Origin: a virus
Taxonomy: Duplodnaviria; Heunggongvirae; Uroviricota; Caudoviricetes
Strand: one strand, 5' to 3'
IMG/VR virus record: IMGVR_UViG_2721755658_000002
Length of the DNA: 34,014 bases
Shown piece after piece: positions 9,904 to 27,859 of the stretch; position 1 is the first letter of the stretch; the number at the start of each line of letters is the position of its first letter. The position numbers and the translations under genes are program-made. The notes beneath the pieces are model-generated. The model had not been told where the DNA came from. It saw only the letters and a program-made list of their open reading frames with translations, and made no database searches.

Positions 9904-10368
9904 TTACTTTAAACACTGCTCGGTTATGTATTGCTGAGCACCTTCAAGTTGGGCCTGCATCATTACCAGTCGTTCCCGGAGGGTGAAATAATCCCGTTCA
10001 GCGGTGTCTGCCAGTCGGGGGGAGGCTGCATTATCCACGCCGGAGGCGGTGGTGGCTTCACGCACTGACTGACAGACTGCTTTGATGTGCAACCGACGAC
10101 GACCAGCGGCAACATCATCACGCAGAACATCATTTTCAGCTTTCGCATCAGCTAACTCCTTCGTGTATTTTGCATCGAGCGCAGCAACATCACGCTGACG
10201 CATCTGCATGTCAGTAATTGCCGCGTTCGCCAGCTTCAGTTCTCTGGCATTTTTGTCGCGCTGTTCTTTGTAGGCGATGGCGTTATCACGGTAATGATTA
10301 ACACCCCATGACAGGCAGACGACGATGCAGATAACCAGAGCGGAGATAATCGCGGTTACTCTGTTCAT
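9904..10368 (-). CDS. rzpR: Rz-type i-spanin
   Basis: [21 protein letters not shown]... N-terminal TM plus coiled-coil periplasmic domain; ATGA overlap with endolysin stop. Confidence 0.85.
9963..10148 (-). CDS. rzoR: Rz1-type o-spanin lipoprotein, embedded in the +1 frame of Rz
   Basis: [20 protein letters not shown] lipobox then proline-rich ...[16 protein letters not shown]...; wholly inside the Rz ORF. Confidence 0.85.
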
Positions 10369-10862
10369 TGCTGACCCCACAAACAGATTTCACGCTCAAT
10401 CTCACGACGAGTCATGAGACCTTTCCATTGCTTACCGCCAGCATATGTCCAGCGACGTAGCTGATCACATGCGCCTTTGATATCGCCCTGGTTTATTTTG
10501 CGAAGAAGCGTCGATGTTCTGAAATTGCCAGCACCCACGTTGTAAACGAATGAGTAAAGAGCGCCGCGCGTTGTTTCCGGTATATCGACTTTGATGTACG
10601 GGTTAATTTGTCTGGCGACCGTGGCAAGGTCTTTATTCAGGAGGGCTTTGCATTCTGCTTTGGTATACGTTTTACCGAGCATGATGTCTTTTCCTGTATG
10701 CCCGTGACATACAGTCCATACACCAACAATATCTTTGTATGGTATGTAGCTGACACCTTCCAGACCATCGTTACCACTTGGGCCAGTGATTAACACTGAT
10801 GCTATAGCAATTGCTCCGCCACCAATAGCAGCAGCAACGACTTTTCGTAATGATGGAGGCAT
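10365..10862 (-). CDS. SAR endolysin (phage 21 R-type lysozyme)
   Basis: 165 aa with N-terminal signal-anchor-release segment [18 protein letters not shown] and lysozyme core; matches phage 21 R as recalled. Confidence 0.88.
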
Positions 10863-11077
10863 TATTCACCTCTCGCAGCCTTGCGCTTATCTTCTTTAAT
10901 CTTGAAATAAAGGTTTGTCAGGTACGTCAGCAGGCCAAATACCAGACTACCCAGCACACCGATTGCAGCCCACTGTGACGGAGTTACTCTATCGAGCAAC
11001 TGTAAAAACCAGTAGCCAGCACTGCCTGCGGAGGTGCCGTAGGCAATGCCTGTTGAAATTTTGTCCATGGATTTCAT
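10862..11077 (-). CDS. class II holin / pinholin (phage 21 S-type) with dual-start motif MKSMDK
   Basis: 71 aa [26 protein letters not shown]... from ATG 11075-11077 preceded by GGAGGTGAG; stop overlaps endolysin start. Confidence 0.85.
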
Positions 11078-11180
11078 AGCCTCACCTCCGCACGGAACGG
11101 ATGGCATAGTTATTATGTGTAGGCTTTCAGACACATCAATCAGAGCCTTAATTGATATATATGCTGGAGACGATGCAATA

Positions 11181-11203
11181 TAAAAAGCTCGCCGTAGCGA
11201 GCT
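11181..11203 (-). terminator. intrinsic terminator on minus strand between the lipoprotein moron and the holin
   Basis: 7-bp perfect stem AGCUCGC/GCGAGCU, UACG loop, then UUUUUA. Confidence 0.5.
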
Positions 11204-11328: not shown

Positions 11329-11724
11329 CTAACCTCGCATGTCAAAGCCAGATTTCTGAAAATCTCTGTAGACTTCCGGATTGTTGAAGGCCGGAAATTT
11401 GGCTTTATGAGCTGCGGACTTTATCGCTTCGCAATAGGCTTTATCACCGTTACTGGTAGATATTTTTAACGCCGTGCCATCCTGAGAGAATTCCATATGC
11501 AACCTGCATTTTTTCCCTTTCCAGTTATGCGGCTCATCAAGTTTGGCATTAATTGCAGCTCTGATTCCCCGCGCTTGCGCCCCCCATTCATCCTGATCAT
11601 CCCAGCGTCCTGAACTGCAACTACCTGTAGCAGTAGTTTTGTGGCAATCTGAAGGGTGTAAAGGTGTGCATCCCGCAACAAAACCGACCCAAAAAGTCAA
11701 CATAACGATTTTCTTTAATCCCAC
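11329..11724 (-). CDS. outer-membrane-type lipoprotein with divergent TolA domain-III-like C-terminal domain
   Basis: GTG start with GAGGAG SD; signal peptide MGLKKIVMLTFWVGFVAGC; C-terminal ...KKCRLHMEFSQDGTALKIS...CEAIKSAAHKAKFPAFNNPEVYRDFQ... shares the conserved pattern of its neighbour and of TolA C-terminus. Confidence 0.6.
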   Translation of the reverse strand: MGLKKIVMLTFWVGFVAGCTPLHPSDCHKTTATGSCSSGRWDDQDEWGAQARGIRAAINAKLDEPHNWKGKKCRLHMEFSQDGTALKISTSNGDKAYCEAIKSAAHKAKFPAFNNPEVYRDFQKSGFDMRG

Positions 11725-11874
11725 TTCTTGCTCCTCAATCCATTAAAATCTCAGCAATAGTAGTTGTTACGTCCGCCACTGGCTCAGAGCTGACTATCCG
11801 CTAAATTTAGCTCAGTGCCGTAGCTGTGTCAGAACAAACCTAAGCCGAAACCGTTTATTACAAAACAATAAATA

Positions 11875-12303
11875 TCAGGGTTTAAAATCCAGCACCCCAT
11901 TTTGAAATACTTTATATACTTCCGGCGAAGGGGGGGCAGGTATATCAGCATTCTTTATCGCATTCATCGCTTCACGACATAAATCGAGGTCTCCACTTTC
12001 TCTTTTAACCTCCAGTAGAAGGCCATTCGGGGCCATATGCATTCTCAGTGTACACTCTTTTCCTGAATACTTACTCGCATCCCCGAACTGTTTTTCGATG
12101 GCGCTCTTGATTTGATGGGCATACAGACGGATATCCTCACTAACATCAGAAGTACGTTCAGATGAACTCACATACTGTGTCTCTATTGCTTTATCGGAGT
12201 AATATGATGTACGGTCATGATAATTTGTCGATACAGCATCAGTGCACCCGATAATAATCCCACTAATAATCAACGTAAGAATTGATGCGCTACGAAAACC
12301 CAT
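11875..12303 (-). CDS. outer-membrane-type lipoprotein with TolA domain-III-like C-terminal domain
   Basis: Signal peptide MGFRSASILTLIISGIIIGC; C-terminal YAHQIKSAIEKQFGDASKYSGKECTLRMHMAPNGLLLEVK...IPAPPSPEVYKVFQNGVLDFKP aligns closely with recalled E. coli TolA C-terminus (...YAGQIKSAIESKF...GKTCTLRIKLAPDGMLLDIK...VYEVFKNAPLDFKP). Confidence 0.7.
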   Translation of the reverse strand: MGFRSASILTLIISGIIIGCTDAVSTNYHDRTSYYSDKAIETQYVSSSERTSDVSEDIRLYAHQIKSAIEKQFGDASKYSGKECTLRMHMAPNGLLLEVKRESGDLDLCREAMNAIKNADIPAPPSPEVYKVFQNGVLDFKP

Positions 12304-13240
12304 TTTTCCTCACATATGTCATATAGTAAAGGATTATATATACCGTTGTTTTGGACGCTCAAACAGCGAATCAGATCAAATAAAACGCACATTTGTTAAC
12401 ATTTACACAAAGTCTGCGTGGGATATTCTGAAAGAATATCCATAATGTGGAGAGAATCTATTGAAGTGCATGGTGCCGGGTGCCTCCCGGTGAACAAAAT
12501 GTTCGTGATACCTGTCGGCGACAGAAAAGGTTAATGGTATCACCCCACCGCACAGGGGGATTCACCATGCAGGAGTTTTCTTAGCAAACTCACTGCGCGC
12601 CCGGCAACTCCCAACCACATAAAATGCGGAGTTTGTGGTATTTATGCATATAACTCGCAGGAATTATCTTAAAAAACTGATGTCGATCCGGATTAAAAAG
12701 AAGCAGGTCATCATCAGATGACTGGAAAAAAGGAAAACAAAAAATACTCATCATACAGTTTTGATTGCAGGGATGAGCCTGCTATGCACAATATGCAGAA
12801 TATAAGCAAGATAAAAATATGCAGGCATATTATTTCGGATTTTGTTATTAACACAACCTTTTTAATAATCATTTGGCATACAATAAACCAGCCCAAAAAG
12901 AACCGCCTAAACAGGCGGTTGGTCAATACAAAGGATGCTTCGTCTTTATTATAGTAATCTGAGGCGTCGGGTGTCTTGTATCAGACAACATATTGTCCCG
13001 CTAAACAGCGAATTACAAACCACCCTGCAATGATCTCTCATCTCATTTTATATGAGTTGACGACATCAGGATAACGCATCATCAGCCCCTGCCAAGAAAT
13101 ATCAAAACTCCCGCCAGCAATGTGTTATCACAATATTGTAAAAAAAACACAGCACCGAAACTATAACTGGTCTCTGTTATAATTTGGAGCAGAAAGACCA
13201 GTTGCCCAACTAGCAGCATTCTCCCCTGCTTTCCTGACGT

Positions 13241-13267
13241 AAAAAAACCGCATTAAGCGGTTTTTTT
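13241..13267. terminator. bidirectional intrinsic terminator (A7-CCGC-ATTAA-GCGG-T7); candidate tR' downstream of the late promoter
   Basis: Symmetric hairpin with poly-A/poly-T flanks about 80 nt downstream of the putative Q gene stop. Confidence 0.65.
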
Positions 13268-13347
13268 ACGATGTCCATGTCTGCAATCCGCCTCGCGATA
13301 CAGCTTTGCGAAGCATAGCAAAATTGAAGCAGTTTATACGTAAGAAA
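13268..13347 (-). promoter_or_regulatory. putative late promoter PR' / Q-utilisation region
   Basis: 80-nt spacer between Q stop and terminator with TTGATT and TGcTATGCT promoter-like elements; assignment by analogy with lambdoid Q-PR'-tR' architecture. Confidence 0.3.
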
Positions 13348-13890
13348 TCAAGCCATTTTCTCAGCAAATGATTCACGCATGGGAATATATAGGGCATACT
13401 CAGCAACAGCTAACCAATTAGCAATCCGTTTTTCGCATGTGCTAAAACACCACTCTGGGTGTGCATCATTTAGCAATTCAGCCATTTTGCGCTTAGTCAT
13501 CCCCCGCCCTTCATAGCGTTGCCGGAGAATGCAAATCAATCCTGGATGCTCTGCCAGCACCTCACTTATGACTCGATCAATACATAACGCCTCTGCATCA
13601 GTACAATGCGCCAGCCAGCTCTTTTGCTTGCCGTTGATCATCTCTCGCAAAAACGCTTCCAGCTCAGCTTTCTCTATTCCCGCTTTTTTCATTCTGCGCA
13701 GGGCTTCATTAATGGCTGTTTTCGTCAGTTTTTTGGATGCCAACAACTGATTGAACATATTCCCTGACCTGCCACCGCCAATATACGACCAGCGCCCCCA
13801 CATACGTAGTTTTCCCTGAATCCAGACACTTTCCAGCGTGGTGAGGCGAAGGTGTTCTCCGCTTTTTCCTGTATTCGTTGGGTAAATCAT
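13348..13890 (-). CDS. putative late-gene antiterminator Q
   Basis: 180-aa ORF immediately upstream of a PR'/tR'-like region and the lysis module, downstream of nin-type genes; several Cys pairs; assigned mainly by position. Confidence 0.5.
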   Translation of the reverse strand: MIYPTNTGKSGEHLRLTTLESVWIQGKLRMWGRWSYIGGGRSGNMFNQLLASKKLTKTAINEALRRMKKAGIEKAELEAFLREMINGKQKSWLAHCTDAEALCIDRVISEVLAEHPGLICILRQRYEGRGMTKRKMAELLNDAHPEWCFSTCEKRIANWLAVAEYALYIPMRESFAEKMA

Positions 13891-15244: not shown

Positions 15245-15400
15245 TTACTCCTCAGGTTCGTAAGCTGTGAAGACAGCGACCTCCGTCTGACCGGTTCGGA
15301 TTCGCACCTCGCAGAGGTCTTTCCTCGTTACCAGTGCCGTCACTATGACGGTTAAACAGATGACAATCAGTGCGACTAACATCGCCTTTTGCTGCTTCAT
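15245..15400 (-). CDS. hok: Hok/Gef family type I toxin (HokD/RelF-like)
   Basis: 51 aa MKQQKAMLVALIVICLTVIVTALVTRKDLCEVRIRTGQTEVAVFTAYEPEE; in-frame upstream extension to 15457 could be mok-like. Confidence 0.85.
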   Translation of the reverse strand: MKQQKAMLVALIVICLTVIVTALVTRKDLCEVRIRTGQTEVAVFTAYEPEE

Positions 15401-15880
15401 AGCCTGCTTCTCCTTGCCTTCCGGCGCGTAAGAGGCTAACCTACATGTGCAAAGCATGAAATTGGCCTCAGATTAATGTTAAGCGTCTTGCCGGACGCGT
15501 AATGTTATCTGGGGCTTTTCTCTATCTGCCTTTGGTGTTCATGCCTGAGGCAGATAGCCTCAAGCACCCGCAGCAATTCTACTTAACTCCCGTCACCTCG
15601 CCAATATAAAATCAATCAGAAAGGCGATCCATAAGAACAACAGCAAGACAATAAATTGCCATTACAGCCGCAATAGCTAGCGCACATTTGAGAACCAGCA
15701 CGACAACCTCCTGTATTGGACGTACACCAGTTCTGATAAATATGAGGCTGTCTCATCATTGATTCAATATAACTATTGGGTATAGTTTCTGTGATTTTGT
15801 TCTGTAGAAATGGAACACAACAACCAGTCACCACCAGCACTTCTTTAAATACGCCAAGTCCGACGCAAGCTAACCTTCTA

Positions 15881-16120: not shown

Positions 16121-17320
16121 ATGCCATTTGTTATTTATGTGTTTACTATCAGTGCCTTTGCGCTCGGACTCGCGGAATTTGTCCCCATTGGGCTGACAGA
16201 CGTTATGGCTCAGGGGTTGTGTGTGGGTGTGGAGCAGACCGGGGCAGCGGTTACAACCTATGCACTGGGGGCAACGTTCGCGGCACCCGTACTGTCTGCG
16301 CTGACAGCAAGCTGGAGCCGGAAAAATGTAATGCTTACAACTGCCGTTGTGTTTACTGCCGGTAGTCTGGCGGCCGCGTTTGCAGCCACATTACCTCAGC
16401 TCCTGTTAGCGCGGTTCATTGCTGGTCTGGGACACGGCCTGTTTCTGGCTGCGGCATCCAGTACCGCAGCTCGTCTTGCTGGACCGGGTAAAGCAGGCAG
16501 AGCGGTGGCTGTGGTATTTGGTGGCTTTACTCTGGCGATGGCAATCGGCGTACCGCTGAGTACATGGTTGGGGGGGGTGGTCTCATGGCGTCCAGTTCTC
16601 GGCGCTATTGCCGCTTTTGGCGCGTTCGGATTCCTTGGACTGTTGTTCGGTATGAAAGATCCCGTACGCAGCGTGCCCGGTGAACATAGTGACTCAGCAA
16701 TGCAGAATATCGGCATGCTGTTTAACCGTAAGTTGCTGGCCGGCGCGCTGGTTACGGTGCTGGCGTATGCAGGCTCGTTTACGGATTACACCTTTATCGC
16801 ACCTATTCTGACGCAGGTGACAGGGGTTACCGGAGCAACGGTGAGTCTGTTTATGCTGGTTTACGGTATTACAGCTGCGGTAGGTAATATTCTTGGTGGG
16901 AAACTTACCGACAGCATGGGGGTTAATCGTGCCAATATACTCATCATTAGCGGCATTGTTGTTGTCGTGCTTGGTATGTGGCTGCTGTCATCCTCACCGG
17001 TGAGCATGGGCATTCTGGTTGCGCTGCTGGGTATGGTGACATTTGCCGCAGTGCCGGCACTGCAGGCCCGTCTGATTGGTGTCGCTGAGCAACATGCTCC
17101 TCATGCGCATGGTGTTGCTGCCGGCCTGAATATTGCGGGCTTCAACTCAGGTATAGCGCTGGGATCAGTACTGGGCAGCATTACTATAAGCCACGCCGGT
17201 ATCGTGTATACCGGTATCAGCGGTGCGATTGTTTCTCTGCTCGGCCTGCTGTTGCTGCTTGCACAAATCCGTCGCAGCCACAGTCGTAAATTTCAACAGG
17301 TTAAAATCGTAGGCCAGTAA
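16121..17320 (+). CDS. MFS family transporter
   Basis: 399 aa, about 12 predicted hydrophobic helices, Gly/Ala-rich MFS-like composition; SD AGGAG. Confidence 0.75.
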   Translation: MPFVIYVFTISAFALGLAEFVPIGLTDVMAQGLCVGVEQTGAAVTTYALGATFAAPVLSALTASWSRKNVMLTTAVVFTAGSLAAAFAATLPQLLLARFIAGLGHGLFLAAASSTAARLAGPGKAGRAVAVVFGGFTLAMAIGVPLSTWLGGVVSWRPVLGAIAAFGAFGFLGLLFGMKDPVRSVPGEHSDSAMQNIGMLFNRKLLAGALVTVLAYAGSFTDYTFIAPILTQVTGVTGATVSLFMLVYGITAAVGNILGGKLTDSMGVNRANILIISGIVVVVLGMWLLSSSPVSMGILVALLGMVTFAAVPALQARLIGVAEQHAPHAHGVAAGLNIAGFNSGIALGSVLGSITISHAGIVYTGISGAIVSLLGLLLLLAQIRRSHSRKFQQVKIVGQ

Positions 17321-17331
17321 AGGGAGGTTAT

Positions 17332-18024
17332 ATGCTTACCCGTGAAAATATGCTTAATGGCACATTTGTCAGGGTGCATGAAGCGCTGCTCCCGGCGAAT
17401 ATGCTCTGGGACGCTGAAAAAATACGCGCATCAATGAACTCTACTCTGGAGGAGCGCCCGACGGGTGCTCCTGTCTGGATATTTGCCTACGGGTCATTGA
17501 TGTGGAATCCCGTGCTGGCGATTGAAGAAATGCAACGGGCCCGTCTGAAAGGATGGCAGCGCAGTTTCTGCATTCGTTTGATATCCGGACGAGCGACTCC
17601 TGATGTCCCCGGCAGGATGTTATCGCTCGACGAAGGTGGAATTACCGAAGGTATTGCGTTCAGACTGCCGGAATCGACTCTTATTAATGAGCTGGAAATT
17701 GTCTGGACGCGCGAGATGATAACCGGTCTTTACCGTCCGGTCTGGGCAGACGTTTCGCTAGGAAACGGTGAGGAAATTCAGGCGCTGGCTTTCGTATCAG
17801 ACAGACTGCATCCGCATTATGAACAGGACAATCTTACAGCGACCGTAGCGTTGAGCATCGCATCTGCCCGTGGAGACATTGGCACGAATGCAGATTATGT
17901 ATGGAAACTGCAGGCCACTCTGGGTGCGTTGGGAATACGGGATGATTACGTGAGTGAACTGGCCCTTGCTCTGCATGAGGCTCCCTGTAACGATAAACTT
18001 CATCAGCGAGGCGCTTCACTATGA
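17332..18024 (+). CDS. ChaC-like gamma-glutamylcyclotransferase family protein
   Basis: 230 aa with VWIFAYGSLMWNP motif and overall similarity to recalled E. coli ChaC; SD GGGAGG. Confidence 0.75.
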   Translation: MLTRENMLNGTFVRVHEALLPANMLWDAEKIRASMNSTLEERPTGAPVWIFAYGSLMWNPVLAIEEMQRARLKGWQRSFCIRLISGRATPDVPGRMLSLDEGGITEGIAFRLPESTLINELEIVWTREMITGLYRPVWADVSLGNGEEIQALAFVSDRLHPHYEQDNLTATVALSIASARGDIGTNADYVWKLQATLGALGIRDDYVSELALALHEAPCNDKLHQRGASL

Positions 18025-18902
18025 GCCATCTGAGCCATCTGCGAACGTTTCTTGAGGCCTATCGCTCTGGCTCCTTTTCAAAGGCGGCAGAACTACTGGG
18101 CATCACTCAGCCCGCGGCGTCACAGCATATCCAGTCTCTTGAGACTCTGGTTGGTAAGCGTCTGTTTATCAGGCAGGCCAGAGGCGTGACGGCAACCGAA
18201 GCTGCGGATGAGCTTGCCCGCTCAGTTTCACCCTTCATTGATGGTCTGGAAGAAAAGCTGTCCTCTTTCCGGTCAGGCTCTGTACGCGGGGGAACAATTA
18301 ATCTGGCAGGACCGCCAGATTTTATTCATTCCCGGCTTGGGACAGTAATGGCTCCACTAATGAAGGAGGGTTATCGCCTACGCTTTCATACCGGCAATAA
18401 GCAACGTATTTATTCCCTTTTGCATGACGGGAGCGCCGATCTCGCTGTTACCGCATCTATGCCTGATGACCGTCTGTACGGCTATGCACATCTACTGACT
18501 GAACGCATGCTCCTTGTTCATGCTCCCGCCATGTCAGAGATCATCGGATCAGAACCTGGTGCTGAAACGCTTGCCTCATTACCGCTGATTGCTTATGACG
18601 AAGAGTTGCCACTGATTAGAGCGCTCTGGGCCTCCATGTTTCAGAGAGCCCCTGAGATGCAGGCTACATTCACCATTCCGGATTTACGTATTATCCGCGA
18701 CTTGGTCTGTGACGGCCACGGGTGGACAGTGCTGCCGGATTATCACTGTGACAATGACCTGAAAAGTGGTCGCCTGATTTCAGTGACACCTGCAGACCTC
18801 GCTCCGACTAATCATCTTTATCTGGTCTGGAACAAAAGGACGGCTAATAACAGCCGAACCGCCTATGTTCGGGATTACATTCTTAAAACGTTTCCGCGTT
18901 GA
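18021..18902 (+). CDS. LysR-family transcriptional regulator
   Basis: N-terminal HTH LRTFLEAYRSGSFSKAAELLGITQPAASQHIQSLE typical of LysR regulators; ATGA overlap with upstream gene. Confidence 0.8.
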   Translation: MSHLSHLRTFLEAYRSGSFSKAAELLGITQPAASQHIQSLETLVGKRLFIRQARGVTATEAADELARSVSPFIDGLEEKLSSFRSGSVRGGTINLAGPPDFIHSRLGTVMAPLMKEGYRLRFHTGNKQRIYSLLHDGSADLAVTASMPDDRLYGYAHLLTERMLLVHAPAMSEIIGSEPGAETLASLPLIAYDEELPLIRALWASMFQRAPEMQATFTIPDLRIIRDLVCDGHGWTVLPDYHCDNDLKSGRLISVTPADLAPTNHLYLVWNKRTANNSRTAYVRDYILKTFPR

Positions 18903-18946
18903 TGTTTGAAACGGATGATTGGCGATGCGTATCATAAGTTACGTAT

Positions 18947-18970
18947 GTCCGCTTCTGGCACAAAGCAGAC
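18947..18970. repeat. 24-bp palindrome GTCCGCTTCTGGCACAAAGCAGAC (copy 2 of 3)
   Basis: 20/24 identical to copy 3; lies between the convergent LysR and DUF2254 genes. Confidence 0.6.
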
Positions 18971-19032
18971 GCCCACTCTCACGCGAATGCTTTGCCCTTG
19001 ACTTGCCAACAACCGTATCGCTTGCTCCGCAA

Positions 19033-20310
19033 CTATGGTTTTTTATTAGAATCTTCGCCACTAAATAAATTATAATAAATTGATTTTATTAGATATCTGT
19101 CAGAATCTATATGGTCAGCACGAGTAGCATGCTCTAATGTTTCAAATGCTAGGGTTTGTGCGGCTTCAGCAAAAATTCCAGGCCAACCCTTACTCAGCAT
19201 CGACAGTCCTTTAAGTACCCTTATCTGAATTTCCCTCATACTGGCACCATCGCGCGCAACAGGTGAGAAAAAGTCTTCAAGTAGATCGTTATTCTGAAGT
19301 GGTGCAACATGTACAGAAGGATATTTCACTTCTATTTCATCAGATTTATTCTGCGCGTAAGCGGAAAGTATACGTACACCTCTGCCAATGACATCAATGG
19401 CGGTTCCAGGATCGTTCACTGCGGGGGAAAGGGCTCGGCAGGCTATTTCGGCCATGACGCTAAGACAAAATCGGGGGTCCTGAGCAAATGAACGTACATC
19501 CGAGACAATAATCGTCTCAAGTAAATCGGTGCTGATTGATGACTCCTGGCCCTGACTCAGGTACAAAACTGGCGTGGACGGATGTATGAAACTGCCCGGC
19601 TGCGCCACGAGGTATACATGACGGGGATCATTGGTCAGCAGCTTGCTGAGTTTCACCATATCAACATATTCAACATAGCCAATCTTTTTCGGATAAACTG
19701 CAACCGTTCCTTTCGGCTGTTCATTGTTCTCAAGCCATGGATATCCGCCGAGACAGGGATTTCTTGCTCTCGCAATAAATGTTTCGATGGCCGCCTGTTC
19801 TACTTTTGCCGTTGTCTCACCAACCCTCCCCAGAGAGGTCAAATGCTGTATCCAGCGAAGCAATGTGATGAGGATTAAGGCAATGACAACCAGTGTTACA
19901 ATGAATAAAATGACTCTCCCCCTTTCTCCATAAGCTCCCATATTGAGGGCAATAATCCCTACCAGACTGAAGAGAAAAGAACCGATGAAGGTGGCCAGTA
20001 CATTTTGTGTGGTGACGTCTTCAACAACTAAACGAGTAGCTCTGGGAGTCACATTAGTAGTGGCTGAACCGTAGGCTGTGACCATGATGCTCAGCGAAAA
20101 TGTGGTCACTGCCAGCATACTCGATGCCAGTATGTTCAGAATGTTATCGACTGCTTCCGCACCAACCTTCACGGAAACCGACTCAGGTATCATTGATTTA
20201 AAAAGAATTGATAAAAGGGCCGTTATTATTGCGACAATTGCGAATAACGTTGCCCTGAACCATAGTTTTTTAAATGTCTGCTTCAGCATCCATTTCCAGC
20301 GTGAAATCAT
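19033..20310 (-). CDS. DUF2254-like predicted membrane protein
   Basis: ORF with N-terminal TM helices; start set to ATG 20308-20310 (GAGGGAA upstream); alternative ATG at 20325. Confidence 0.5.
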   Translation of the reverse strand: MISRWKWMLKQTFKKLWFRATLFAIVAIITALLSILFKSMIPESVSVKVGAEAVDNILNILASSMLAVTTFSLSIMVTAYGSATTNVTPRATRLVVEDVTTQNVLATFIGSFLFSLVGIIALNMGAYGERGRVILFIVTLVVIALILITLLRWIQHLTSLGRVGETTAKVEQAAIETFIARARNPCLGGYPWLENNEQPKGTVAVYPKKIGYVEYVDMVKLSKLLTNDPRHVYLVAQPGSFIHPSTPVLYLSQGQESSISTDLLETIIVSDVRSFAQDPRFCLSVMAEIACRALSPAVNDPGTAIDVIGRGVRILSAYAQNKSDEIEVKYPSVHVAPLQNNDLLEDFFSPVARDGASMREIQIRVLKGLSMLSKGWPGIFAEAAQTLAFETLEHATRADHIDSDRYLIKSIYYNLFSGEDSNKKP

Positions 20311-20373
20311 TCTGCATTCCCTCATATTGCAGCCGGGATAAATAAATGCCGCCTCTGTGGCGGCATGTTGCTG

Positions 20374-22377
20374 TTAACGAACCAGATGCAGGAAGTGCAG
20401 GTGTTTTTCGTACTGGTCCAGTATGTCATTAATCAGCTGTTCCTGATTCCAGCCCATTACATCATAATTTTGGCCGCCCTCTTTGAGATAGACTTCAGCG
20501 CGATAATATCGATGTTGTTCACTCTGCTGCTCATCATTATCCAGCGCAGCGAGCGCGAAGGTCGGTGAGTTATACCCGCGAAGCCTCACTTCATATATAT
20601 AATTCAGCTCGTTGCCCAAATCGACTTCAAGGCGAATACGATCCTCGGCGGCGTCACTGATGTGGCTTATCGTTCCCTGCTTGTTAAGTTCCTCCTGAAC
20701 CAGCGTCATGGCGGGTTGGATAATGTCGTCCATAAAACGTTTCACAAGAGAGCGCTTCGGCAAATACGCGATATTGCGTAACCTTCTCTGCCAGGGAATT
20801 GGGTTACGTGCAGCCGTAGGAGCAATAGTCGCCATGCTAAGGCTTTCACGCTTGGTCAAATCCCGACGCAGGGCTTTTAACAGTCCGTATATGGATATTA
20901 ATAAGATAACTGAGAAGGGCAATGCACTCGCTATCGTTACGGTTTGCAACGCACTCAGCCCCCCTGCGATCAGCAGGGCAATAGCAACAACGCCCATGAG
21001 CGATGCCCAGAAAATTCGCTGCCAGACGGGCGTGTTTGCCACCCCACCTGATGCCAGAGTATCCACAACCATTGCCCCCGAATCAGCAGACGTTACAAAG
21101 AAGACGATGACCATCGCCATTGCAATGAATGACAGCACGGAAGAGAACGGGAAATGCTCCAGGAAATTAAACAGGGCAAGCGCAACATCCTGCTGAACGG
21201 TATTGGCGAGGTCAGTGGCGCCCTGGTTCATGATGAGATAGATGGCGCTGTTTCCAAACACCGTCATCCACATGAGCGTAAAGCCGGCGGGAACAAACAA
21301 CACGCCAGTCACGAACTCACGAATTGTCCTGCCGCGGGAAACGCGTGCAATGAACATACCTACAAACGGCGACCATGAAAGCCACCATCCCCAGTATAAT
21401 AATGTCCAGCCCCCCAGCCAGTTGCTCGACTTGGGTTCATACGCGTAAAGGTTGAACGTTTTACTCACCAGTTCCGACAGATAACCACCCGTATTTTCCA
21501 CAAATGACTTCAGCAGAAGCACAGTGGGACCCAGGCACAAGACCAGCGCCAGGAGCAACACCGCCAGGCCCAGATTAAGCTCAGACAGGATGCGTATTCC
21601 CTTGTCCAGGCCGGACACCACCGAAATCGTCGCTAACCCCGTGATGACCACGATCAAAATGACCTGTACCGTTTCATTGATGGGCACGCCGAAAAGATGG
21701 TTCAAACCGGCATTCACCTGCAATACACCGTAACCCAGCGATGTTGCAACGCCAAAGACAGTGCCTATCACGGCGAAGATATCAACCGCGTGGCCTATAG
21801 GCCCGTAAATGCGATCGCCGATAATGGGATAGAGCGCAGAACGCAGCGTTAAAGGCAGACCGTGACGGTAACTGAAAAAGGCCAGAATCAGCGCCACGAT
21901 GGCATAAATTGCCCATGCGTGCAGACCCCAGTGGAAGAACGTCAGGCGCATGGCTTCCTTCGCTGCCGCAACGGTCTCTGGAGTGCCGACAGGTGGCGAA
22001 AGATAATGCATCACAGGTTCGGCAACGCCAAAGAACATCAGGCCGATCCCCATCCCTGCCGAAAAAAGCATCGCGAACCAGGAGTGGTAGCTGAAATCAG
22101 GCTGCGCATGGTCTGGGCCCAGCTTTATATCACCGTAACGTGAGAGTCCAAGGAACGTGACGCTCAGTAAAATCAGGGCCACAGCAAGTATGTAGAACCA
22201 GCTGGCATTCGTGAAGATTTGTTGCTGAAGTAGTTTAAAATTTTTGTCGGCGACATCCGGGAATACGGCGGCAAAGGCGACAAGAAGGAAAATTAGCAAA
22301 GCAGATGTAAAGAATACCGCTTTGTTAATCTGGCTTGTAGACTTCTTTGGGGTTGTATCATTTTCACTCATAATCAT
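20374..22377 (-). CDS. BCCT-family transporter (BetT-like choline/betaine transporter)
   Basis: 667 aa multi-TM; C-terminal ...QEQLINDILDQYEKHLHFLHL... resembles BetT C-terminal extension as recalled; start may be the ATG at 22371. Confidence 0.8.
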   Translation of the reverse strand: MIMSENDTTPKKSTSQINKAVFFTSALLIFLLVAFAAVFPDVADKNFKLLQQQIFTNASWFYILAVALILLSVTFLGLSRYGDIKLGPDHAQPDFSYHSWFAMLFSAGMGIGLMFFGVAEPVMHYLSPPVGTPETVAAAKEAMRLTFFHWGLHAWAIYAIVALILAFFSYRHGLPLTLRSALYPIIGDRIYGPIGHAVDIFAVIGTVFGVATSLGYGVLQVNAGLNHLFGVPINETVQVILIVVITGLATISVVSGLDKGIRILSELNLGLAVLLLALVLCLGPTVLLLKSFVENTGGYLSELVSKTFNLYAYEPKSSNWLGGWTLLYWGWWLSWSPFVGMFIARVSRGRTIREFVTGVLFVPAGFTLMWMTVFGNSAIYLIMNQGATDLANTVQQDVALALFNFLEHFPFSSVLSFIAMAMVIVFFVTSADSGAMVVDTLASGGVANTPVWQRIFWASLMGVVAIALLIAGGLSALQTVTIASALPFSVILLISIYGLLKALRRDLTKRESLSMATIAPTAARNPIPWQRRLRNIAYLPKRSLVKRFMDDIIQPAMTLVQEELNKQGTISHISDAAEDRIRLEVDLGNELNYIYEVRLRGYNSPTFALAALDNDEQQSEQHRYYRAEVYLKEGGQNYDVMGWNQEQLINDILDQYEKHLHFLHLVR

Positions 22378-27091: not shown

Positions 27092-27146
27092 GGTGATGCT
27101 GCCAACTTACTGATTTAGTGTATGATGGTGTTTTTGAGGTGCTCCA

Positions 27147-27422
27147 GTGGCTTCTGTTTCTATCAGCTGTCCCTCCTGTTCAGCTACTGACGGGGTGGTG
27201 CGTAACGGCAAAAGCACCGCCGGACATCAGCGCTATCTCTGCTCTCACTGCCGTAAAACATGGCAACTGCAGTTCACTTACACCGCTTCTCAACCCGGTA
27301 CGCACCAGAAAATCATTGATATGGCCATGAATGGCGTTGGATGCCGGGCAACAGCCCGCATTATGGGCGTTGGCCTCAACACGATTTTACGTCACTTAAA
27401 AAACTCAGGCCGCAGTCGGTAA
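27147..27422 (+). CDS. insA: IS1 InsA
   Basis: Identical translation to copy A InsA. Confidence 0.93.
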
Positions 27423-27844
27423 CCTCGCGCATACAGCCGGGCAGTGACGTCATCGTCTGCGCGGAAATGGACGAACAGTGGGGATACGTCGGGGCTAAAT
27501 CGCGCCAGCGCTGGCTGTTTTACGCGTATGACAGGCTCCGGAAGACGGTTGTTGCGCACGTATTCGGTGAACGCACTATGGCGACGCTGGGGCGTCTTAT
27601 GAGCCTGCTGTCACCCTTTGACGTGGTGATATGGATGACGGATGGCTGGCCGCTGTATGAATCCCGCCTGAAGGGAAAGCTGCACGTAATCAGCAAGCGA
27701 TATACGCAGCGAATTGAGCGGCATAACCTGAATCTGAGGCAGCACCTGGCACGGCTGGGACGGAAGTCGCTGTCGTTCTCAAAATCGGTGGAGCTGCATG
27801 ACAAAGTCATCGGGCATTATCTGAACATAAAACACTATCAATAA
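27341..27844 (+). CDS. insB: IS1 InsB reading frame
   Basis: Identical translation to copy A InsB. Confidence 0.92.
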
Positions 27845-27859
27845 GTTGGAGTCATTACC

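Follow-up and report, generated by a model that had tools for sequence, protein, structure and literature searches.

The stretch of DNA considered here (the window) is IMG/VR virus record IMGVR_UViG_2721755658_000002, 34,014 nucleotides in length. It is a Rac-type prophage of Escherichia coli, 99.8% identical to the prophage of strain ECCHD184, with intR, xisR, recET, kilR, sieB, and trkG among its genes. Directly upstream of the lysis genes, the minus strand carries two adjacent genes that we name geneA (open reading frame (ORF) 12303..11875) and geneB (ORF 11724..11329). Each encodes a small protein in which a lipoprotein signal peptide is followed by a disordered tether of 25-35 residues and a C-terminal domain that, by profile and predicted fold, is domain III of the cell envelope protein TolA (TolA-III). 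The features discussed below are collected in Table 1.

Both N termini carry a canonical lipobox (pattern used: [LVI][ASTVI][GAS]C). That of geneA reads MGFRSASILTLIISGIIIGC followed by TD, with an n-region beginning MGFR, and that of geneB, translated from a GTG codon, reads MGLKKIVMLTFWVGFVAGC followed by TP, with an n-region beginning MGLKK. Each gene is preceded by a Shine-Dalgarno sequence, GAGGA at 12307-12311 for geneA and GAGGAG at 11731-11736, ahead of the GTG, for geneB. An earlier reading of the locus, made from the sequence only, had described two minus-strand lipoprotein genes between 11329 and 12303 with Thr at position +2 and Shine-Dalgarno sequences of their own, and this description is borne out. 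The start of geneB has been annotated in two ways: RefSeq gives a gene of 375 nt with an ATG start at 11703, which removes the Lys-Lys n-region, and the sole phage record with geneB gives 396 nt from the GTG at 11724, which keeps it. The GTG start is thus the better fit to a signal peptide. In E. coli, lipoproteins with a residue other than Asp at +2 are sorted to the outer membrane, and the Thr at this position therefore predicts outer-membrane sorting of both proteins; we infer that geneA and geneB are outer-membrane lipoproteins.

Table 1. Positions of the features discussed, in the window unless another record is named (aa, amino acids; AF2, AlphaFold2; SAR, signal-anchor-release; nt, nucleotides)
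Feature	Position	Strand	Basis or remark
geneA, lipoprotein with C-terminal TolA domain III, 142 aa	11875..12303	(-)	ORF, Pfam, PDB phmmer, AF2/Foldseek
geneA signal peptide and lipobox, residues 1-20, IIGC, +2 Thr	12244..12303	(-)	sequence
geneA TolA-III domain, residues 54-142	11878..12144	(-)	alignment
geneB, lipoprotein with divergent TolA domain III, 131 aa	11329..11724	(-)	ORF, Pfam, AF2/Foldseek
geneB signal peptide and lipobox, residues 1-19, VAGC, +2 Thr	11668..11724	(-)	sequence
geneB Cys-x8-Cys tether loop, C27...C36	11617..11646	(-)	alignment; seen in distant representatives too
geneB TolA-III domain, residues 45-131	11332..11592	(-)	model, Foldseek, dN/dS
Sigma-70 promoter-like site TTGAGC-18-TATAAT, ~30 nt upstream of geneA	12333..12362	(-)	10/12 consensus matches
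STnc100-family prophage small RNA element, directly upstream of geneA	12414..12600	(-)	Rfam RF02076, 86.6 bits against gathering 47
Q-like late regulator (putative), DUF1133	13348..13890	(-)	borderline Phage_antitermQ, 26.1 bits against cut-off 26
Terminator-like hairpin AGCTCGC-TACG-GCGAGCT then TTTTAT, between geneB and holin	11186..11203	(-)	
Complete phage-21-type lysis cassette	9904..11134	(-)	profile matches
P21 holin	10862-11134	(-)	RefSeq essD 216 nt, start then at 11077
Lysozyme, hydrophobic N terminus read as SAR-type	10365-10862	(-)	
Rz	9904-10380	(-)	
Rz1, embedded in Rz, lipobox VVGC, Pro-rich	9963-10148	(-)	
STnc100 copies at sampled loci	L014/L015 4704-4877, 5599-5803, 5854-6061; L014 2589-2802; L002 5444-5634		
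Third-type TolA-III lipoprotein, 144 aa	L008:6812-7246, Klebsiella pneumoniae plasmid pMR0617ctx, IncFIB/IncFII	(+)	lipobox ITAC followed by S; Pfam TolA 85.9 bits
TonB_C lipoprotein, 108 aa, EDL933_RS11180, WP_000828070.1	NZ_CP008957.1 2148918-2149244 (L027:6919-7245)	(-)	Pfam TonB_C 56 bits

Against the Pfam profile of the TolA C terminus (PF06519; gathering cut-off 25 bits), geneA scores 82.6 bits (E 2.4e-23) and geneB 54.6 bits (E 1.3e-14). A phmmer search of the PDB aligns geneA without a gap to residues 334-421 of E. coli TolA (entries 1s62, 3qdp, 2x9a, and 1tol; E ~5e-28), an alignment that spans both cysteines and the terminal VYxVFxN..LDFKP, and Foldseek puts its sequence identity to the E. 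coli TolA-III chains at 57-60%. The two proteins share 27-28% identity with each other. In both, as in TolA, the cysteines are spaced 25 residues apart (C84-C109 in geneA, C73-C98 in geneB, C363-C388 in TolA); the pair is invariant in both family alignments, and geneB has the motif PEVYRDFQ. The AF2 models are confident over the domain (predicted local distance difference test ~90) and disordered over the N-terminal 40-50 residues of both proteins, residues 1-50 of geneA being of low confidence. Both show an α/β fold with a three-stranded sheet, as in solved TolA-III. The geneA model superposes on 2x9a_B, TolA-III from its complex with IF1 g3p, with a root-mean-square deviation (rmsd) of 0.6 Å over 88 columns (59% identity, template modeling (TM) score 0.96), and the geneB model on 3qdp with an rmsd of 1.2 Å (31% identity, TM 0.91; Foldseek). 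The models also superpose on TolA-III from its complex with colicin A (ColA; 3qdr), and the next-ranked folds are the TolA-III domains of Vibrio and Pseudomonas, followed by TonB C-terminal domains. The sequence-only reading had likened geneA almost residue for residue to the TolA C terminus and had taken geneB for a more divergent paralogue with the same cysteine spacing and a PEVY..FQ motif; profiles and superpositions alike agree with it.

Neither protein is a TolA orthologue, since both fall below the TolA equivalog profile NF007065 (geneA 107.8 and geneB 53.7 bits, over the last ~95 profile positions only, against a cut-off of 213), both are without the membrane anchor and domain II, and both are encoded outside tolQRAB-pal. 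The place of the inner-membrane anchor and helical domain II is taken by the lipoprotein signal and the tether. In some genomes, geneA is labeled by the Prokaryotic Genome Annotation Pipeline as 'tolA: cell envelope integrity protein TolA' or as a tolA pseudogene 'missing N-terminus', because it passes the TIGR02794 cut-off of 59.45 (75.6 bits) through its C-terminal ~100 positions alone; geneB, at 47.2 bits, fails. The name is a misnomer for geneA, and this name and the RefSeq start of geneB are probable annotation errors, spread over hundreds of genomes.

The surfaces by which TolA-III is recognized can be compared directly, residue i of geneA corresponding to residue i+279 of TolA. The N1 domain of g3p, colicin N (ColN), and the N terminus of TolB each add a strand to β3 of TolA (415-420, APLDFK), held there by hydrogen bonds to the backbone of D418 and K420 (PMC4339652, PMC7391070), and strand addition of this kind is promiscuous (PMC4339652). 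The ColA site consists of residues 375-380 (LLDIKP) together with the cation-π lysines K368, K379, and K396 (PMC3365938). In geneA, the counterpart of β3 is GVLDFK, its LDFK identical to that of TolA, and the ColA strand reads LLEVKR with H, K, and K at the three lysine positions, so that K379 and K396 are kept. The corresponding segments of geneB are SGFDMR and ALKIST, with E, S, and H in place of all three lysines. Judged from the alignment, geneA keeps both known docking edges of TolA and geneB only a β3-like edge, and the two proteins probably differ in ligand range.

The tether of geneB contains a strongly conserved segment, PLHPSxC-HKTTATGS-C-SSGRWDDQDEWG, that has no counterpart in TolA; the Cys-x8-Cys loop within it is a hallmark of the geneB family, found in distant members also. 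The TolB box of colicins has the form DGSGW...W, and mimicry of this box by the tether motif was considered and rejected. The second Trp of the motif corresponds in the alignment to TolA Y340, where helix 1 starts (the helix of the geneB model begins at residue 46), and distant homologues do not retain the Trp residues.

The 1.5-kb module formed by the two genes is present at a coverage of at least 80% in 771 of 5426 complete E. coli genomes (14%), nearly always at an identity of at least 99%. Of 50,697 phage records, mEp460_ev081 alone contains the module, there following a different Q gene; homology with the window breaks off at position 12494, inside the STnc100 element, and comparison of the two sequences indicates that the window's module recombined into this phage. 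Variants of the geneA type (91% and 66% identical) were seen only in E. coli. At all eight loci sampled, the geneA-type gene lies between a Q gene (λ-type or DUF1133) and a P21-type holin or, where the prophage has decayed or the contig ends, the region in which the holin is expected. Elsewhere than here, geneB is absent from these loci, and the cargo alongside geneA comprises an esterase, DUF826, AraC, and PmrD. The Q-to-holin slot is variable, holding geneA and geneB in the window, geneA with other cargo at other loci, and tRNAs, TerB, and an esterase in EDL933. The 330 nt upstream of geneA are conserved in other geneA loci, and copies of STnc100 bracket geneA-type genes in other prophages.

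Genes of the geneB type are more widely dispersed, with >370 protein clusters in Citrobacter, Enterobacter, Klebsiella, Serratia, and Raoultella. They are found on 604 plasmids, and one copy lies in a cargo region at the end of a Citrobacter prophage, so that the function of geneB appears to be independent of the lysis cassette. On plasmids of the I complex (IncI1/B/O, IncK2/Z), the gene follows the relaxase gene nikB at a distance of 68 nt in each of the four sampled, and the copy on pO157 is flanked by toxB and the hok/psiA leading region. A third TolA-III type, also a lipoprotein, is encoded by ~310 further plasmids, mostly of Klebsiella; on pMR0617ctx, the one plasmid sampled, its C terminus is ALDFRL, and its gene is immediately downstream of a gene for a thioredoxin-fold protein. 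The complete sequences of F and R64 gave no TolA-III homologue in tblastn searches at E up to 0.1, and in R64 nikB abuts trbC. A profile search of 1.84 billion representative sequences returned 577 matches. Among the best 150 of these, 62 are short proteins (at most 170 aa) with a lipobox, none having Asp at +2 among those tallied, and a few other family members among the best matches have ordinary signal peptides. Named members come from Erwinia, Klebsiella, Enterobacter, Serratia, and Dryocola. From the profile search and the distribution over plasmids and prophages, it follows that stand-alone secreted TolA-III is, as far as homology can tell, a broad enterobacterial family carried largely on mobile elements.

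Ratios of nonsynonymous to synonymous substitution (dN/dS), estimated by the Nei-Gojobori method, are 0.07-0.12 for the TolA-III part of geneB (at dS 0.4-0.57) and 0.09-0.34 for that of geneA (at dS 0.2-0.46). The tether of geneA is relaxed, at 0.4-0.8, as would be expected of a spacer. In geneB, the copies from the prophage, pO157, IncI1, and Citrobacter do not differ in their last 36 residues, which comprise helix 3, helix 4, and β3. Diversifying selection was looked for as a sign of an arms race, and purifying selection was found instead.

The surroundings of the pair agree with the sequence-only reading, which had placed it between Q and the holin and ahead of a terminator. Upstream lies a DUF1367/YbcO/DUF1133 trio, the last member of which is a candidate Q-like late regulator because of its borderline match to Phage_antitermQ, and downstream lie the P21-type holin, the lysozyme, and Rz/Rz1, with a terminator-like hairpin and T-run at 11203-11186 in between. 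Neither geneA nor geneB is a spanin: both are folded-domain proteins encoded upstream of the holin, and the cassette already has Rz and Rz1. The region of the promoter-like site upstream of geneA is conserved in other geneA loci. By consensus, this site and the terminator-like hairpin behind geneB may mark the pair as a lambdoid moron with a promoter and terminator of its own, and the variable occupancy of the Q-to-holin slot is typical of morons. The U-run that follows the terminal hairpin in the STnc100 family consensus is missing from this copy, so that transcription might continue into geneA, and the element may serve as a leader or as a recombination linker for Q-to-holin cargo. The ~750 nt between the Q-like gene and STnc100 (12600-13348) form an AT-rich stretch (GC content 0.35-0.42) with no recognizable ORF match. 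A strong hairpin with a T-run, with weak isrK-like matches, comes right after the Q stop (~13250-13275), and another terminator-like site is found at 12920-12901.

If the predictions hold, each protein would hang a folded TolA-III into the periplasm on its flexible tether. As they have neither a membrane anchor to TolQR nor domain II, they would transduce no force, and without coupling to TolQR they could only compete with host TolA for the ligands of its tip. In this general form, as competitive mimics of TolA-III, we consider the proposal likely to be correct. A more specific version has the N-terminal domains of filamentous-phage pIII and the translocation domains of Tol-dependent (group A) colicins emerging at the periplasmic face of the outer membrane, where the tethered mimic would capture them before the energized host TolA is reached, and the lysogen or plasmid host would become tolerant. 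Such a protective decoy against Tol-dependent colicins and filamentous phages is the reading that we favor, tentatively and a little short of calling it probable. The degrees of confidence given for this reading and for its rivals need not sum to one.

TolA-III binds ColN with a dissociation constant (KD) of 1 μM and TolB with one of 40 μM, i.e. ColN ~40-fold more tightly (PMC4339652), so that low amounts of a decoy could trap ColN at little cost to Tol-Pal. When pIII-N1 in the periplasm sequesters TolA, cells resist colicin A and their uptake of fd is lowered by 4 logs (PMC10424213), and exported TolA-III leads to release of periplasmic protein, as reported in PMC6195910 after Levengood-Freyermuth 1993 and Wan & Baneyx 1998. 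Plasmids with F-type and I-type mating-pair systems are among the carriers of the family. The pili of these systems are the receptors of TolA-dependent filamentous phages, and in the laboratory Ff and I-pilus filamentous phages are by tradition grown on strains with F and R64. We favor the decoy because ColN is bound more tightly than TolB, because pilus plasmids carry the family and F and R64 are without a homologue, and because geneB occurs far from lysis genes while the lysis cassette in the window is complete. A role of this kind, or one in Tol-Pal, both of which the sequence-only reading had raised, is made more plausible by the conservation of the strand that binds g3p-N1, TolB, and ColN and the purifying selection, by the presence of the family on pilus plasmids and its absence from F and R64, and by the precedent of the TolA-III and pIII-N1 experiments.

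Several considerations weigh against the decoy. The genes lie in the late transcript path and may therefore be made mainly after induction, when protection of the lysogen would be irrelevant, and the promoter and terminator are consensus matches, the promoter-like sites numbering 11 against 7.5 expected by chance. The tether adjoins TolB-Pal, and the domain could titrate the TolB N terminus, damaging the envelope. The ligands of geneB are uncertain because it has diverged at the ColA site (K368→E, K379→S, K396→H) and differs from β3 at five of six positions. One sequenced phage record only carries the genes, and absence from F and R64 amounts to two data points. Filamentous phages would not be the sole target, since the host of the prophage need not carry a conjugative pilus. 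The analysis establishes the identity and fold of the domain, the lipoprotein signals, the position and distribution of the genes, and the purifying selection on them; the function is a prediction from sequence and models, and so are the localization of the proteins, their expression in a lysogen, their binding of ligands, and any protection that results. A ciprofloxacin-induced 'tail fiber protein', EDL933_2012 (PMC11125564), is not tied to a TolA-III gene and was not used as evidence of expression; RAST-style phage annotation gives this label to a 216-nt gene in the holin position.

The main rival to the decoy is a dominant-negative effect on Tol-Pal, in which the tethered TolA-III would bind the TolB N terminus and block its capture by energized TolA; Pal would stay sequestered, and the outer membrane would loosen. 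In the prophage this would aid the last step of lysis or boost the release of vesicles or cargo after induction, and on plasmids it could alter envelope permeability or vesiculation. Location speaks for such a role, in that the genes lie directly upstream of the holin on a Q-dependent late path, geneA-type genes occupy the Q-to-holin slot at all sampled loci, and the tether would put the domain where TolB-Pal is found. So does what is known of the interaction: the TolB-binding LDFK strand is identical in geneA, TolA β3 mutants that do not bind TolB have a tol phenotype (PMC4339652), exported TolA-III causes periplasmic leakage (PMC6195910), and modulated TolB interactions could, according to a review, regulate vesicle production (PMC7391070). 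We nevertheless consider this explanation unlikely, given that the lysis cassette is already complete, with holin, lysozyme, Rz, and embedded Rz1, that a terminator-like site separates geneB from the holin, and that geneB-type copies on plasmids and in cargo regions have no lysis genes nearby. TolB also binds TolA-III only weakly, at the 40 μM given above (PMC4339652), and constitutive envelope damage would be costly for a gene that is under purifying selection and present in 14% of complete E. coli genomes.

More doubtful still is that the TolA-III fold has been recruited to bind another partner, some periplasmic protein of phage, plasmid, or host origin that has nothing to do with the known ligands of TolA. 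Examples would be a function in conjugative transfer or mating-pair formation next to nikB, or the binding of an unknown bacteriocin or effector. It is geneB that invites this idea, being just 31% identical to TolA-III and having a conserved Cys-x8-Cys loop and a tether segment that TolA lacks; its fixed position after nikB in the four I-complex plasmids sampled, the pairing of the third plasmid type with a thioredoxin-fold gene, and the promiscuity of strand addition at TolA-III (PMC4339652) are all compatible with it. However, geneA is a near copy of TolA-III with both binding edges kept, which is hard to explain unless the native ligands matter, and R64 transfers without the gene, which is thus not a core transfer function.

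That the genes are non-functional leftovers, captured tolA fragments decaying in a cryptic prophage, is most improbable: geneA is flagged as a partial tolA in some genomes and the Rac-type prophage is partly degraded (a close relative has an IS5-truncated tape-measure gene and a sieB pseudogene), but neither ORF is disrupted, each has gained a lipoprotein signal peptide and a Shine-Dalgarno sequence, homologues that have diverged yet stayed intact are spread over many clusters and genera, 62 representative clusters share the architecture, and dN/dS values far below 1, together with the invariant last 36 residues of geneB, rule out decay, so that selection and architecture already contradict this reading.

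A decoy of the kind that we favor can be set beside several known systems. Domain III of TolA itself (334-421; 1TOL, 2X9A, 3QDP/3QDR, 1S62) has the same fold and cysteine pair/disulfide as geneA and geneB; geneA shares its β3 LDFK and most of its ColA strand, and geneB its secondary structure. TolA, however, has its own transmembrane helix to TolQR and a helical domain II, is encoded in tolQRAB-pal, and reaches out from the inner membrane, whereas geneA and geneB, without these parts and encoded on prophages and plasmids, are predicted to hang their domain from the outer membrane. Exported TolAIII, a fusion to the signal of ribose-binding protein, is likewise a free periplasmic TolA-III that competes with native TolA. 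It is artificial, soluble, and overproduced, whereas geneA and geneB are natural, mobile, diverged, under purifying selection, and predicted to be lipid-anchored. Exported TolA-III is also said to have made cells colicin-tolerant in the 1993 work of Levengood-Freyermuth. Exclusion mediated by pIII exploits the same interaction surface against Tol-dependent entry of phage and of colicin A (PMC10424213). It is the mirror image of what is proposed here, in that a ligand of the invader blocks the receptor of the host, whereas the decoy, a copy of the receptor domain, would soak up the ligand of the invader.

Small outer-membrane lipoproteins of mobile elements are well known from Llp of T5, Cor of φ80, HK022, and N15, TraT of F, and Bor of λ, often encoded by morons near lysis genes. 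These proteins protect their host and are comparable with geneA and geneB in size, predicted location, and mobility. Llp and Cor bind and block the outer-membrane receptor FhuA, but none of the four is known to copy a domain of a periplasmic coreceptor of the host. The sequence-only reading knew of no characterized function for prophage lipoproteins with TolA-III, and the databases have added none: PHROGs places the proteins in phrog_5772, 'unknown function', and the defense-system models of PADLOC gave no match to geneA or geneB at E up to 1. The full-text literature yielded no paper describing a TolA-like lipoprotein family of prophages or plasmids, most papers in subscription journals not being searchable. 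The homology of the domain is already visible in database annotation, NCBI naming the family by the domain alone; the architecture, distribution, and selection of the family and the decoy hypothesis appear to be undescribed.

A parallel is provided by the other force transducer of the envelope, TonB. In enterohemorrhagic E. coli EDL933, the prophage at the same chromosomal (Rac/ttcA) site has no TolA-III gene in its Q-to-holin slot; just downstream of Rz it encodes a lipoprotein with a TonB_C domain (N terminus MKRNLPLIILLSSLVMGC followed by TQ; lipobox VMGC followed by T). The design is that of geneA and geneB, a lipobox joined to the C-terminal domain of a force transducer and encoded in a moron position by lysis genes, although the domain is TonB_C rather than TolA_C and the gene lies downstream of Rz, not upstream of the holin. 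Stx1a phages are among the 15 phage records with this gene, whose family PHROGs labels 'Rz-like spanin'. Proteome data for EDL933 include the protein, at a level that ciprofloxacin did not change (PMC11125564, S1 table). That prophages carry tips of both TolA and TonB with a predicted lipid anchor argues for a general strategy rather than an accident. It is possible, although we put it forward with considerable reserve, that outer-membrane-anchored copies of TolA-III and of the TonB C-terminal domain are widespread on the mobile elements of Enterobacterales (lambdoid prophages, I-complex and F-type plasmids) as periplasmic receptor decoys, which would catch filamentous-phage pIII and the translocation domains of colicins dependent on Tol or Ton at the inner side of the outer membrane and so confer broad tolerance.

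Such a class of receptor decoys would represent a principle of defense, mimicry of a host coreceptor domain, that is distinct from receptor blocking, restriction, and abortive infection. Were geneA and geneB to act as decoys, receptor-domain mimicry would be added to the mechanisms of exclusion, and about one-seventh of complete E. coli genomes would have, at the low cost of a single gene, a shield against bacteriocins that depend on Tol and filamentous phages specific for pili, as would hundreds of clinically relevant plasmids (pO157, IncI1/IncK, and the IncF resistance plasmids of Klebsiella). This would bear on bacteriocin competition in the gut and on colicin- and phage-based strategies against plasmid-bearing bacteria, and it might explain conjugative plasmids that resist 'male-specific' phages. 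If the effect were instead on Tol-Pal, the genes would be natural, tunable inhibitors of that system, of relevance to vesicles, toxin release, and phage lysis. On either reading, the annotation 'tolA' or 'tolA pseudogene' is misleading for these lipoproteins.

The remainder of the window departs in places from the ECCHD184 prophage. Two copies of the insertion sequence IS1 (1-713 and 27092-27859), with ORFs of the size of InsA and InsB (91 and 167 aa), are absent from that relative, and the segment 24755-25623 has no match in it. Upstream of DUF1367/YbcO/DUF1133 there is a hokD-type toxin-antitoxin locus with a sok antisense RNA on the minus strand (15395-15569; Rfam 116 bits). Between hokD/sok and the replication genes, positions 16121-22377 form an island of metabolic and transport cargo, in which the annotation of the near-identical relative recognizes a major facilitator superfamily transporter, a γ-glutamylcyclotransferase, a LysR regulator, a DUF2254 protein, and a BCCT transporter.

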